Origin: Bacteroidota bacterium
GTDB taxonomy: Bacteria > Bacteroidota > Bacteroidia > 2-12-FULL-35-15
Assembly: GCA_947466965.1 (NCBI GenBank)
Contig: CANIFU010000007.1
Location: forward strand, 2,249 to 66,248
Length of the DNA: 64,000 nt
Direction: 5' to 3'
In this document: positions 41,289 through 58,275 of the stretch, one piece after another
Layout: every line of letters begins with the position of its first letter
Position numbering within the stretch: the first letter of the stretch is position 1
Translations under genes and position numbers: made by a program
The notes under the pieces: model-generated
Seen by the model: only the letters and a program-made list of their open reading frames with translations
What the model was told of the DNA's origin: nothing
Databases searched by the model: none

Positions 41289-42161
41289 ATGTCCGACACG
41301 CTAATATCCGAAGAAAGAAAATTTCAACGTAAACCTGATTGGTTGCGGGTTAAATTGCCAACAGGAAAAGAGTATTCTCAAGTCCGAGAAATTGTTTCTA
41401 AACATAAATTACATACAATCTGTGAAAGTGGAAATTGTCCGAATATGGGTGAATGCTGGGGTGCTGGTACTGCAACTTTTATGATTCTTGGTAATATTTG
41501 TACACGCTCCTGCGGATTTTGCAACGTTGCCACTGGAAGACCTTTATCTGTTGATCTGCAAGAGCCTGAAAGAGTTGCAGAATCAGTTCGTTTGATGAAT
41601 GTGAAACATTGCGTTATCACATCTGTTGATCGTGATGACTTAAAAGATGGTGGTTCCACTATTTGGGCGGAAACAATTAATGCAATCAGAAGAGTTAGTC
41701 CTCAAACAAAATTTGAAACACTGATTCCTGATTTTCAAGGGAAGTGGGAAAACTTACAACGTATCATTGATGTAAAGCCTGATATTGTTTCTCATAATTT
41801 AGAAACGGTTCGCCGACTTACAAAACAAGTGCGCATACAAGCAAAATACGACAGAAGTTTAGAAGTGTTAAAGCGTTTAAAAGATGCTGGTGTAAAAACA
41901 AAATGCGGTGTGATGCTTGGTTTGGGTGAAACCGAACATGAAGTAATTGAAACAATGAATGATTTGAGGGCTGTTGGTTGTGATGTATTAACATTAGGGC
42001 AATATCTTCAGCCAACCACAAAGCATTTGCCTGTTGCCGAATTTGTTCGACCGGAAGTATTCGCAAAATATAAAGAGATCGGTTTATCAAAAGGATTTCG
42101 TTTTGTTGAAAGCGGTCCGTTGGTGAGATCCTCTTATCACGCTGAAAAGCATATATTTTAA
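41289..42161 (+). CDS. lipA: lipoyl synthase
   Basis: Two Cys clusters ([12 protein letters not shown] and CTRSCGFC, the radical-SAM CxxxCxxC) and the C-terminal SSY motif. Confidence 0.95.
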
Positions 42162-42164
42162 AAA

Positions 42165-42183
42165 AAATTAAACACATAGACAC
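42165..42183 (+). repeat. 19-bp repeat AAATTAAACACATAGACAC, copy 1 (immediately 3' of lipA stop)
   Basis: Identical to 43025..43043. The reverse complement occurs at 43229..43247. Confidence 0.7.
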
Positions 42184-42224
42184 TTAGAAAAAAGGAAGAT
42201 TAAGCACTTTTCGTTTAGCGTTTC

Positions 42225-42262
42225 ACATAGCCCATAAATCGTTAACGATTTATGGGCTATGT
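42225..42262. repeat. perfect 38-bp palindrome (17-bp arms around a GTTAAC centre)
   Basis: ACATAGCCCATAAATCG-TTAA-CGATTTATGGGCTATGT reads identically on both strands. There is no T-run following it. Confidence 0.85.
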
Positions 42263-42423
42263 ACTTATCTAATCTGCTTGCATATTAATAATCCGTTTTA
42301 AATCCATTCTTGCTCCGAAAAAATCAGTATAAATCCGTTTTATCTGCGTCATCCGTGTTCCATTTCCACGAATGTTCCATCCGAAGTCGCATTATTTTTC
42401 CAGCATCGAACTACTTTTCACTC

Positions 42424-42431
42424 TATCTTTG
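42424..42431 (+). promoter_or_regulatory. putative -7 box (TATCTTTG) for the pentapeptide-repeat gene
   Basis: TAnnTTTG consensus 22 bp upstream of the ATG at 42454. Confidence 0.3.
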
Positions 42432-42453
42432 TAATGAAATTCCACTAAGTAAA

Positions 42454-43026
42454 ATGAGCATAACAATAACCGAAAATAAAACATTTGAAAAAAGTAATTT
42501 TCCTGAAACTTCTTTGCAAAAAGGAGAATATGAAAATTGTAAATTCAAAGATTGTGATTTTTCAAATGCTCATTTATCCAACTATATTTTTGTGGATTGT
42601 GAATTTATCGATTGCAATTTAAGTCTGACCAAATTCAGTAATACTGCATTGAAGACAGTGAAGTTTAAAAATTGCAAAGTATTAGGAGTGAATTTTGCTG
42701 AATGCAACGACTTTTTGTTTGCTGTAAATTTTGAAGATTGTTTGTTGAATTTATCCATGTTCTACAATACAAAACTAAAAGGAACAAAGTTCAAAAATTG
42801 TAGTCTGCACGAAGTGGACTTTACGGAGACGGATTTAACAAATGCAACCTTTGATAATTGCGATTTGATGGGTGCTATTTTCAGAAATTCTATTTTAGAA
42901 AAAGCAGATTTAAGAACAGCCTTTCATTTTTCGATTGACCCGGAAGCAAATAGAATGAAGAAAGCAAAATTTTCACGAATGGGATTGGATGGGTTGCTTC
43001 ATAAGTATGGCATTGATGTAACGTAA
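42454..43026 (+). CDS. pentapeptide-repeat protein
   Basis: Tandem A(D/N)LxX-type pentapeptide repeats throughout (CKFKDCDFSNAHLSNYIFVDCEFIDCNLSLTKFSNTALK...). The first Met after the promoter-like box is at 42454; the listed 42310 start is a likely spurious extension. Confidence 0.75.
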   Translation: MSITITENKTFEKSNFPETSLQKGEYENCKFKDCDFSNAHLSNYIFVDCEFIDCNLSLTKFSNTALKTVKFKNCKVLGVNFAECNDFLFAVNFEDCLLNLSMFYNTKLKGTKFKNCSLHEVDFTETDLTNATFDNCDLMGAIFRNSILEKADLRTAFHFSIDPEANRMKKAKFSRMGLDGLLHKYGIDVT

Positions 43027-43044
43027 ATTAAACACATAGACACA
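43025..43044 (+). repeat. repeat copy 2 (immediately 3' of pentapeptide gene stop); left arm of a 19-bp inverted repeat
   Basis: TTAAACACATAGACACATA at 43026..43044 is the exact reverse complement of 43229..43247. Confidence 0.8.
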
Positions 43045-43228
43045 TAAAAAAAATATAAAAGGTTGGGGTGTTATTACATAGAAAAAAATAAATTTTGTAC
43101 ACAGACATCTCTCTATCTTTGATAGCTTGCTTCAAACATATGAAAACACAAAGGAAAAATAGAATTAAGAAAATAGAATAATGATCGTTTTGCAGCATTC
43201 GCACATTCGTAACTAAAAAGGTAAAAAC

Positions 43229-43247
43229 TATGTGTCTATGTGTTTAA
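43229..43247 (-). repeat. inverted copy of the AACACATAGACAC repeat (right arm), 30 bp upstream of gap
   Basis: TATGTGTCTATGTGTTTAA. The two arms enclose about 184 bp of AT-rich sequence that contains a TATCTTTG box (43113..43120). Confidence 0.8.
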
Positions 43248-43276
43248 AAATCCATGATTAAAAGACAAATCACTAA

Positions 43277-44281
<1,005 letters not shown>

Positions 44282-44308
44282 AATAAGTAGAATTGTTGTA
44301 TTGAGATT

Positions 44309-44348
44309 AAGTCAGGCTGTATAACGAATTTTGATACAGGCTTATTTT
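44309..44348 (+). terminator. probable terminator after gap
   Basis: AGTCAGGCTGTAT...ATACAGGCTTATTTTT imperfect hairpin plus T-run. Confidence 0.5.
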
Positions 44349-44404
44349 TCCAAATAAATTATAAATTATAAAAAATAATTTACAGTAAAAAGAATGTACT
44401 TATT

Positions 44405-56493: not shown

Positions 56494-56513
56494 TTGCTCA
56501 ACCGAATCATTTA

Positions 56514-56550
56514 AAAAGCCCTTCGTAAAAATTACGAAGGGCTTTTTAAG
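56514..56550 (+). terminator. rho-independent terminator
   Basis: AAAAGCCCTTCGTAAAAATTACGAAGGGCTTTTTAAG. Confidence 0.85.
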
Positions 56551-56621: not shown

Positions 56622-58223
56622 ATGAAAATTAAATTCTTCTTCTATTCTTCTATACTATGTATAGCCATCGCAATACTTGGTTTTTTTTATCCGAAAGTAT
56701 TATGGTCTTTTTTGCTTGTTGCTCCAATTGTTCTATTGGGAATTAAAGATGTACTCCAAACAAAACATAGTTTGAAACACAATTTTCCAATTATCGGACG
56801 CCTGCGTTGGTGGGCCGAATGGATGCGACCAAAGGTGTATCAATATTTTGTTGAATCGGATACTGACGGCGCTCCATATAATCGTTTGAGTAGAAATGTT
56901 ATTTATCAGCGTTCAAAAAAAGTATCAGACTCAACTCCTTTTGGAACGCAATTAAATGTTTATGAAGTAGGTTATGAATGGTTGAATCATTCCATTGCGC
57001 CACTGCCTTTAGAGAAAGGAGAGCAAAATCCGAGAGTTATTGTTGGTGGACCCAATTGCAAACAACCTTATTCTGCCAGCATCTTTAATATATCTGCATT
57101 GAGTTTTGGTTCTTTGAGTAAGAATGCAATTATGGCATTGAATAGTGGTGCAAAACTTGGTGAATTTGCCCATAATACAGGTGAAGGAGGCTTGAGCCCA
57201 TATCATTTAGCTCTAGGTGGTGATATTATCTGGCAAATTGGAACTGGCTATTTCGGTTGCAGAAATGTGGATGGTACTTTTAATCCCACTGCTTTTGCTG
57301 AACGCGCTGTTTTACCGAATGTAAAAATGATAGAGATAAAATTATCTCAAGGAGCAAAACCAGGACACGGAGGAATTCTTCCTGCTGCTAAGGTTACTGA
57401 AGAAATTGCAAAAATTCGTTTAGTTGAAAAAGGCAAGGAAGTTTTATCTCCTTCTTATCATAAAGCATTTGGTACACCTATAGAATTACTTGCTTTTATT
57501 AAACAATTACAAGATTTAAGCGGAGGTAAACCTGTTGGTTTTAAATTGTGTATCGGACAAAAAAGTCAGTTTATCGCTATTTGTAAAGCAATCGTGAAAA
57601 CCAATATTATCCCCGATTTTATTACTGTTGATGGAGGTGAAGGTGGAACAGGGGCTGCTCCTTTGGAGTTTAGTAATTCGGTGGGAATGCCTTTGAGAGA
57701 AGGCTTGGCTTTTGTTTATGATGCATTGAATGGCTTTGGATTAAAAAAACATATTAAAATTATTGCTTCCGGAAAAGTGCATACGGGATTTGATTTAGTG
57801 AAAAACTTTTCGCTGGGCGCAGATATGTGCAGTGGCGCAAGATCAATGATGATGGCTTTGGGTTGTATTCAAGCATTAGAGTGCAATTCCAATACTTGTC
57901 CTACGGGAGTGGCTACTCAAAATCCGAATTTATACAATGGGTTAAACGTTGATCATAAAAAAGTTCGTGTATTTAACTATCACCATGAAACGGTTAAAGC
58001 AGCAATAGAATTAATGTCGGCAGCTGGAATTGAACATCCTAATAATTTACATCGATCGCACATATACAGAAGAGTGAGCGCCAATAAAATTCAAACGTAT
58101 GCCGAGATGTATCCTTATTTATTAAAAGGATCTTTGTTGGAATCACCTTATCCAGAAGGCTGGGAATTTGATGTTATGCATAGCAGTGAAGAAACATTTA
58201 CTAATAGTTTGAAATATTCCTAA
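56622..58223 (+). CDS. FMN-binding glutamate-synthase-family protein (GltS FMN/Fe-S domain-like)
   Basis: Two N-terminal TM helices, then a GltS-type TIM-barrel region (HNTGEGGLSPYH...GGEGGTGAAP...CNSNTCPTGVATQ). Confidence 0.75.
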   Translation: MKIKFFFYSSILCIAIAILGFFYPKVLWSFLLVAPIVLLGIKDVLQTKHSLKHNFPIIGRLRWWAEWMRPKVYQYFVESDTDGAPYNRLSRNVIYQRSKKVSDSTPFGTQLNVYEVGYEWLNHSIAPLPLEKGEQNPRVIVGGPNCKQPYSASIFNISALSFGSLSKNAIMALNSGAKLGEFAHNTGEGGLSPYHLALGGDIIWQIGTGYFGCRNVDGTFNPTAFAERAVLPNVKMIEIKLSQGAKPGHGGILPAAKVTEEIAKIRLVEKGKEVLSPSYHKAFGTPIELLAFIKQLQDLSGGKPVGFKLCIGQKSQFIAICKAIVKTNIIPDFITVDGGEGGTGAAPLEFSNSVGMPLREGLAFVYDALNGFGLKKHIKIIASGKVHTGFDLVKNFSLGADMCSGARSMMMALGCIQALECNSNTCPTGVATQNPNLYNGLNVDHKKVRVFNYHHETVKAAIELMSAAGIEHPNNLHRSHIYRRVSANKIQTYAEMYPYLLKGSLLESPYPEGWEFDVMHSSEETFTNSLKYS

Positions 58224-58242
58224 AAAATAAATGCACAAATAT

Positions 58243-58275
58243 CCCTTCTTAAAATTTACGAAGGGCTTTTTATTA
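58243..58275. terminator. rho-independent terminator between convergent genes
   Basis: CCCTTCTTAAAATTTACGAAGGGCTTTTTATT shares the TTACGAAGGGCTTTTTA core with the terminator at 56514..56550. Confidence 0.7.

Follow-up and report, generated by a model that had tools for sequence, protein, structure and literature searches.

Directly upstream of gap, the gene for a type I glyceraldehyde-3-phosphate dehydrogenase (GAPDH; 43277-44281, plus strand; Pfam Gp_dh_N/C), the 64-kb stretch of contig CANIFU010000007.1 from a Bacteroidota bacterium analyzed here carries a non-coding element of about 220 bp that is bounded by inverted repeats. We call this whole stretch the window; all coordinates given without a locus number are window positions, and L-numbers designate the loci with which it was compared. 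The element is found at the gap locus of five species and again at a second locus, beside yicC, where relatives lack it. [quoted passage not shown] If true, a central glycolytic gene is driven by a promoter from a small mobile repeat kept under selection, a clean natural case of promoter capture, in a host clade of uncultured freshwater and soil Bacteroidota.

The left arm, TTAAACACATAGACACATA, consists of two tandem NCACATAG words and occupies 43028-43046 on the plus strand, starting 2 nt past the stop of an open reading frame (ORF) for a pentapeptide-repeat protein (PRP) that ends at 43026. Its exact reverse complement, the right arm, is at 43229-43247 (minus strand); both were located directly in the sequence and by pattern search. 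Between them lies an AT-rich, non-coding inner segment of 182 nt (43047-43228, plus strand), and a 29-nt leader (43248-43276, plus strand) separates the end of the right arm from the gap ATG at 43277. An earlier reading of this DNA, made from the sequence alone (the sequence-only reading), had recognized a real pair of inverted repeats and placed the right arm correctly, but its left arm (43026-43044), inner length (184 bp) and distance from right arm to gap (30 bp) are corrected by the values given here. With up to 3 mismatches allowed, TTAAACACATAGACACATA has three matches in the 64 kb, compared with 0.03 expected from 100 shuffles, and the core CACATAGACAC is confined in the window to these three sites.

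The arms match each other at 19/19 positions in the window, 21/21 in L226 and 23/25 in L228. In a six-sequence alignment (A4) the left arm is invariant except at its edges, and the right arm is kept in L217, L221, L226, L228 and L028. The inner segment carries the invariant blocks CATAG(AA)AAAAATAAATTTT and AGCTTGCTTCA. Conservation continues outside the repeat into the leader, whose pattern CATGA(T/A)TAAAAGAC..AAATG is common to the window, L217, L221, L226 and L228; a relative that lacks the element, L223, retains ATTAAAAG-ATG. Element lengths range from 215 to 220 bp, and the coding content amounts to a 58-aa minus-strand ORF with a GTG start and short upstream ORFs (uORFs), the latter being lost in L217, L221 and L226. 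Element-encoded peptides or uORFs (MKTQRKNRIKKIE, MCLCV, and an 8-codon uORF overlapping the gap ATG) were considered and rejected, as none is conserved in those three loci.

Movement to a second locus and age of the gap copy

The second locus, L028, is on a contig of a metagenome-assembled genome (CAMCUO010000018), where the element lies between an eamA-like gene and yicC. Its arms are identical to those of the window; the left arm begins 14 nt past the upstream stop codon, the interior measures 178-183 nt, and the right arm ends 69 nt before the ATG. The two interiors share the blocks CATAGAAAAATAAATTTT and AGCTTGCTTCA and are 60% identical over the whole inner segment, with a blastn match of 66% over 128 nt (E 3e-5). 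Relatives with the gene order arsC-eamA-yicC-gmk are free of the element, the corresponding spacer being 63 nt in L230-L232 (YicC 94% identical) and 73 nt in L233-L234 (86%), and the promoter-proximal right flank is conserved in these empty sites. Because two outgroups lack the element, it was gained at the yicC site in the L028 lineage. On this comparison the element has been copied to a new site at least once. Its move to a new locus, and its loss or absence among relatives, are features in which its behavior resembles that of a MITE or mobile promoter. The sequence-only reading had suggested a small mobile element with further genomic copies. The discrete, repeat-bounded, non-coding character of the element, its second locus and the empty sites bear this out, as does the recurrence of the same arm motif in many Bacteroidota; a clean target-site duplication did not emerge.

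At the gap locus itself, the order lipA-PRP-element-gap of the window is shared by the sister species L217-L219 (GAPDH 94% identical) and L220-L222 (93%). L226/L227 (92%) and L228/L229 (89%), which are more distant, lack a PRP gene; there the element makes up the 257-nt spacer between lipA and gap, its interior measures 177-179 nt (L226 and L228), and its right arm is followed by the leader known from the window. Altogether, the element occupies an equivalent position in five species of one genus-level clade (GAPDH 89-100% identical), and 29-31 nt separate its right arm from the gap ATG. Two other relatives lack it: L203 (GAPDH 92%, PRP 79%), in which PRP and gap are 6 nt apart, and L223 (GAPDH 93%), which has neither PRP nor element and a lipA-gap distance of 44 nt. 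L203 had been taken as proof of a recent insertion, an argument overturned by L226 and L228, in which the element is old at the gap locus.

Between the window and L226/L228 the element plus leader is 77-82% identical, comparable to coding sequence, while identity at the four-fold degenerate positions in gap and lipA is no more than 37-42%, which is essentially saturation. The interior alone is 72-79% identical to that of L226/L228, the best-kept parts being the two arms, an A/T-rich block and AGCTTGCTTCA (A4). By this measure the gap copy is old and evolves far more slowly than neutral sites; it is not a recent insertion. An identity so far above that of the saturated four-fold sites argues for purifying selection or for exchange between species.

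Another spacer beside gap varies as well. The gap-metallophosphatase spacer, 123 nt in the window (44282-44404), is 375 nt in L217 (3509-3883); the extra ~250 nt of this indel-prone spacer includes a terminator-like hairpin, CTGGTCAGAAGA...TCTTCTGAC, followed by TTTTTT. The metallophosphatase-M1 peptidase spacer of L223 (4260-4545) contains two tandem units of ~105 bp bounded by a G+C-rich inverted repeat, CACACCCCTAATCCCTCTCAAGAGGG ... CCCCTCTTGAGAGGGGCAGGGGTGTG, which represent a different MITE-like element.

The candidate promoter and the PRP segment

The element probably supplies the promoter of gap. TATCTTTG at 43114-43121 is the sole strict match to TAnnTTTG between PRP and gap (the sequence-only reading had found this box and placed it one base to the left, at 43113-43120). 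Together with TTTG at 43094-43097, 16 nt upstream, it forms a candidate Bacteroidetes-type promoter (43094-43121, plus strand), although TAnnTTTG occurs 96 times in 128 kb (both strands), or ~0.19 times per 250-nt spacer, so that one box is not improbable. The invariant A/T-rich block and TTTG lie where an upstream element and a -33 element would be expected, and invariant blocks flank the box (A4). The end of the -7 box overlaps a small conserved palindrome or hairpin, TTGA(T)AGC-TT-GCTTCAA (43119-43135, plus strand; A4), whose outermost pairs, compared by eye, vary yet remain complementary (T-A in the window, A-T in L226, C-G in L228, and A-T vs T-A in L028). In L226 and L228 only ~10-17 nt precede the left arm and ~30 nt follow the right arm; because the element is nearly the entire lipA-gap spacer there, a gap-specific promoter in these loci must be internal to it.

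We consider the following scheme as a possible history and function of the element. A ~220-bp inverted-repeat-bounded element with tandem-word ends would have been mobilized to new intergenic sites, and the copy at gap would have been domesticated as a 5' regulatory cassette comprising the only Bacteroidetes-type box in the spacer, the invariant A/T-rich block and the palindrome at the presumed start. Transcription of gap would begin inside the element, near 43128, and give a leader of ~150 nt that contains the right arm only; that a transcript from the internal box would include the right arm had been anticipated by the sequence-only reading. Such a leader would be long for the window, in which most box-to-ATG distances are 4-62 nt. 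The arms would serve as sequence-specific recognition sites for a protein, either a mobilizing enzyme or a DNA-binding factor, and not as an RNA stem. No terminator-like site was detected between 41800 and 43600, the loop of the element being 182 nt. Canonical terminators are found elsewhere in the window: near-identical hairpins, AAAAAGCCCTTCGTAAAAATTACGAAGGGCTTTTT, at 56512-56547 and 58237-58272 flank a single gene (56622-58223), and the 50-nt copies are 80% identical.

A third copy of the arm motif, TTAAACACATAGACACTTA, was located by pattern search at 42168-42186 (plus strand), beginning 6 nt past the lipA stop (42161). The sequence-only reading had noticed it there, but it lies neither at 42165-42183 nor is it exact, having one mismatch (CACTTA for CACATA), and it does not appear to be an independent element. 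It is part of a 29-nt direct repeat, 93% identical, between 42165-42193 and 43025-43053. In L226 and L228 the left arm of the single element stands directly after lipA, at the position of the third copy, and what comes after the lipA-proximal motif in the window clade is AAAAAAGGAA, the sequence that also follows the ancestral left arm. The segment between the direct copies (42187-43027, plus strand) is absent from L226, L228 and L223. It contains a 38-nt perfect palindrome (42225-42262), a promoter box TATCTTTG (42424-42431) 22 nt before the PRP ATG, and the PRP gene itself (42454-43026), which encodes 190 aa matching Pfam Pentapeptide families. On the simplest reading, a PRP segment of ~0.84 kb that included the PRP promoter entered the element of the window lineage a short way inside its left end, and ~29 nt of the left arm became duplicated. 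The third copy would then be a left arm, duplicated or ancestral, that the PRP segment has cut off from the remainder of the element.

Several further observations concern this segment. Such events come readily to this region: in L220 (2108-2510), one strain of a sister species, a 133-bp tandem duplication comprising the 3' end of PRP, the left arm and half of the interior, joined at a TTGCTTCA microhomology of element and PRP, has produced two left arms and one right arm. In certain strains of the species from which the window comes (L211 4648-4762, corresponding to window ~42936; ENA contigs of ERZ1426532) PRP is interrupted ~90 nt before its stop by an unrelated strain-specific island with small ORFs of 122, 112, 136 and 70 aa, at which assemblies break. 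PRP homologues are annotated by JGI as 'fluoroquinolone resistance protein' (Qnr-like). The palindrome downstream of lipA, ACATAGCCCATAAATCGTT|AACGATTTATGGGCTATGT, has CACATAG/CTATGT at its base, and three C-to-T changes in its left half in L220/L221 keep G-U pairing on the sense strand. These changes hint that the palindrome forms an RNA hairpin, which could serve as the lipA terminator.

The region from approximately the lipA stop to the gap start also has a distinct history in the window clade. Divergence from L217 and L221 is 13-14% in lipA and gap (four-fold identity 54-58%) and only 2-3% in between, with four-fold sites of PRP 98% identical. A two-rate change-point model against L217 delimits a low-divergence block at 42147-43308 (delta log likelihood 57), its start supported within 42081-42234 and its end within 43278-43329. 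The two spacers fall inside this block, as do PRP and the element. With L221 as the comparison the block shrinks to 42242-43255, and its left edge comes to lie inside the lipA-PRP spacer. This pattern indicates that the lipA-gap block was recently transferred between species. The ends determined against L217 match the outer motif pair within the resolution of the method, and the exchange may have been homologous or site-specific.

CACATAG-word arrays across Bacteroidota

We scanned 185,579 species genomes with AAACACATAGACAC and obtained at least 120 loci. Among the matches listed, those in Bacteroidota nearly always extend as AAACACATAGACACATAG (...ACATAG and further words), whereas in matches outside the phylum the 14-mer is followed by unrelated sequence, is often intragenic and looks random. 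The listed Bacteroidota matches include Flavobacterium (Flavobacteriaceae), Saprospiraceae, Chitinophagales, Prolixibacteraceae, Cyclobacteriaceae, Crocinitomicaceae and Dysgonomonadaceae. Flavobacterium aquaticum and F. difficile are among the species with the motif (loci L067 and L068). The ends of family members consist of 2-4 tandem NCACATAG words, the consensus being a T-rich run and then AAACACATAGACACATAG, often with a third or fourth word next, at a period of 8-9 nt; the interiors are lineage-specific. Most Bacteroidota sites have an inverted partner, CTATGTGNCTATGTGTTT, at a distance of 1 to ~250 nt. Almost all are intergenic: a stop codon precedes the left end by 5-56 nt, a start codon mostly follows the right end at a distance of 14-43 nt, and the flanking genes are mainly co-directional or convergent. 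The arrays are patchy in distribution: 79 were counted in 0.89 Mb of seeded loci, while 80 unselected gap loci from Bacteroidota, 0.44 Mb in all, contained 1; JGI-metagenome GAPDH relatives (at most 74% identical, non-syntenic) served as this negative control for motif density. Within arm pairs the CACATAG cores are invariant, while the bases between words differ between arms and are often unpaired. The invariance of the cores, with linkers not kept complementary, points to recognition of the words and not to a need for a perfect stem.

The family appears to be undescribed. The motif strings occurred in no paper of the literature searched, shorter strings gave nothing but chance matches to primers, and a dCas12f/sigma-E paper that was considered proved unrelated. 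No Rfam family covers the elements, whether the whole window is searched at the gathering score, 42100-43350 at E values up to 10, or 18 family loci; these scans gave only a tRNA, and SRP and Flavo-1 RNAs at some distance from the elements. BLAST against plasmid and phage collections left the element unmatched, and the 18-mer was found once in 2.9 million viral contigs; these searches revealed no phage or plasmid link. Downstream genes share no function, and include those for MsrB, BrxC, SCO1, GltD-like, YicC, DciA, PorP and TolC-like proteins and a sigma-54 activator, among others. A supposed redox regulon (BrxC, MsrB, SelO, thioredoxin) dissolved when these genes were annotated one by one. 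Asymmetry of G-U versus A-C mismatches between arms, considered as a test for the transcribed strand, was uninformative, the counts being balanced and dominated by the flanks.

Some loci show related arrangements. Two Flavobacterium loci (L006 1909-2440 and L046 532-1063) have a small PD-(D/E)XK gene (PF13366, PDDEXK_3) between inverted CACATAG arrays, the L046 copy being frameshifted; we rejected PDDEXK_3 as the mobilizing gene, as it is bracketed by arms in these two loci and absent from all others. L087 (5660-6290) and L065 (3540-4040, minus strand) contain tandem units of 100-200 bp, each opening with 2-4 CACATAG-type words. The L087 units include a hairpin, GATGAAAC...GTTTCATC, and a Flavo-1 RNA (RF01705, 6401-6478) follows ~240 nt beyond the end of the array. 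Upstream of gap in L123 (2862-2966; GAPDH 74% identical) there is an analogous inverted repeat of another tandem word, GGTACAGATAACAGAT ... ATCTGTTATCTGTACC, with 34-nt arms that are 82% complementary. In L086, in L068 and at 42290-42370 of the window, CACATAG arrays have similar word repeats next to them (AATTCGT, TAACTTC and ATCCGT/ATCTGCG). Repeats built from words may be a wider phenomenon than the CACATAG word alone. If the reading that we favor holds, the CACATAG arrays are, for annotation, markers of gene boundaries that will be mistaken for MITEs or for spurious small ORFs.

Alternative explanations and known systems

A number of observations weigh against a mobile promoter cassette. 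At the gap and yicC loci only ambiguous AT-rich matches (TTAA, TA, AAA), within or beside the arms, could be taken for a target-site duplication, the empty-site spacers being too diverged to define junctions. No transposase or recombinase was found among the 25 commonest of 132 Pfam families in the 80 nearest ORFs of 36 family loci (8-kb snippets, in which hits to single members are possible), and no arm pair at insertion-sequence-scale spacing was seen around a transposase. The 64-kb window has one full element and one extra arm, and all comparative data are from metagenome assemblies. Conservation at gap could come partly from exchange between species and not from selection, the block at 42147-43308 having clearly been exchanged recently. 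Motif copies in the window clade are not more conserved than the remaining spacer (7/60 versus 28/465 variable columns, p = 0.10), a test that says little because divergence within this clade is so low. Finally, the predicted -7 box matches fully in no clade but that of the window (window, L217 and L221), reading TATCCTTG in L228 and, more weakly, TATGAATTG in L226.

If the favored reading holds, the phylum-wide conservation of the terminal words, an 18-nt non-coding array, implies a conserved reader protein. Alternatively, the arms might be paired operators at which a factor binding the CACATAG heptad loops out the gap promoter, the family then being one of binding sites and not a mobile element. 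Arrays of 7-8-bp words, direct and inverted, are bound by MetJ- or omega-type ribbon-helix-helix repressors and occur as Fur-like arrays, and here the arms lie ~200 bp apart. From family to family within the phylum the words do not vary, with linker bases free and not complementary, the distance between the arms stays at ~200 bp in the window and in L226, L228 and L028 although the inner segments differ by indels, and the arms are the most conserved part of an element under constraint. We nonetheless regard operators as unlikely, since the downstream genes are functionally incoherent, the left ends hug stop codons with divergent gene starts in only 1 of ~19 cases inspected, the arrays are very patchy among genomes, and the presence or absence of whole 220-bp units is unlike the behavior of a regulon site; nor was a candidate protein found. 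More speculatively, the words may be recognition or crossover sites of a phylum-wide protein, a recombinase or a heptad-binding factor of ribbon-helix-helix type, with the arrays acting as attachment sites that mobilize promoter cassettes and let gene cassettes integrate. Two direct copies of the arm on either side of the PRP gene are what a circle would leave on integrating at a resident site, and the movement of the lipA-to-gap block between species, with boundaries at or near the outer motif pair, can be cited for the same idea, to which we assign a low probability.

The remaining alternatives place the function of the arms in RNA or in DNA inversion. A 19-21-bp stem around ~180 nt in a read-through PRP-gap or lipA-gap mRNA could be an RNase III site of the REP or Correia type, or a 3' stabilizer that uncouples the upstream gene from gap. 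The 261-nt region does fold with the full 19-bp closing stem (minimum free energy -45.3 kcal/mol, z = -3.1), the short-loop members of the family resemble REP-type hairpins between co-directional genes, and the pairing-preserving changes in the lipA-proximal palindrome point the same way, if weakly (n = 3). In RNAalifold, however, there is no covariation (term +1) and the only solid helix is invariant and hence uninformative, so the structured leader proposed by the sequence-only reading comes down to its closing stem. The sole substitution within an arm of L221 (CTATGTG to CTATATG) produces a C-A mismatch on the sense strand, linker positions are often mismatched in family hairpins, no terminator-like site accompanies the stem, and a transcript from the internal box would be without the left arm. 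An RNA role for the arms is accordingly improbable. Less probable still is an inverton, in which a site-specific recombinase would flip the 182-nt segment and switch gap on and off, as in phase-variable promoters of Bacteroides. Perfect inverted repeats of 19-21 bp surround ~180 bp with the only predicted promoter box directly upstream of a gene, the arms are best conserved, and the repeat is common to several loci, as would be the case with a master invertase. Yet all 16 of 16 full-element contigs, from the five gap-locus species and L028 and from many samples, have the interior oriented toward the downstream gene (assemblies report the majority orientation only); no recombinase domain was detected by Pfam within ±10 kb, although master invertases can be encoded elsewhere; many family loops of 1-40 nt are too short to invert; and gap is a housekeeping gene. 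Chance, or a purely local duplication without wider meaning, can be practically dismissed. The sequence is AT-rich and of low complexity, and the three copies in 64 kb all lie within 1.1 kb, but this count far exceeds expectation, dozens of Bacteroidota genomes contain the identical 18-20-nt motif, and the element has been kept in five species as well as at another locus.

The mobile promoter cassette, which we continue to favor, has partial counterparts among known repeats. Correia elements are marked by a clear TA duplication, by high copy numbers and by an IHF site, features that the analysis did not show for the window element. There is no sequence similarity to Correia or ERIC elements, which belong to another phylum, and the window family is distinguished by ends of tandem 8-9-nt words conserved phylum-wide, by lineage-specific interiors and by a constrained copy at gap. 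The resemblance is in architecture: Correia (CREE/NEMIS, of Neisseria) and enterobacterial ERIC/IRU elements are likewise non-coding and intergenic, 100-300 bp long with inverted repeats of ~20-26 bp, often lie a short way upstream of genes or between co-transcribed genes, and may carry parts of promoters and form hairpins in mRNA (see also PMC3488235). REP/BIME sequences and REPINs with their RAYTs (PMC3733652) are similar to the short-loop family members, being extragenic palindromes past stop codons, mostly between co-directional or convergent genes and often in tandem or inverted doublets; the arms described here, by contrast, are built of tandem heptad words without a GTAG/CGTC tag in their consensus, and the window member has a promoter-like interior of 182 nt. 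Bacteroides invertons share with the element ~20-bp inverted repeats around ~180 bp with TAnnTTTG directly upstream of a gene, and differ in the single orientation, lack of a nearby invertase and hairpins too short to invert noted above.

Within Bacteroidota, BrickBuilt/MITEPgRS and MITECca01 of Cardinium are also intergenic, non-coding and repeat-bounded. Their terminal repeats (IS5-type ends GAGACC... in the former, IS982-derived in the latter) are unrelated to the CACATAG arms, and they have identifiable parent insertion sequences and are restricted to species, whereas no parent was found for the window family and its ends are common across families of the phylum. BrickBuilt of P. gingivalis has demonstrated promoter activity beside the housekeeping gene argS (PMC4596501). 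The mobile-promoter survey of Matus-Garcia et al. 2012 required at least 80% identity within one genome (PMC3488235), whereas the gap and yicC copies are in different genomes, with ~60% inner identity, identical arms and a promoter that is predicted only. As in mobile promoters (PMC3488235), homologous 5' sequence stands before non-homologous genes, here gap and yicC, and a non-autonomous, repeat-bounded carrier is probable.

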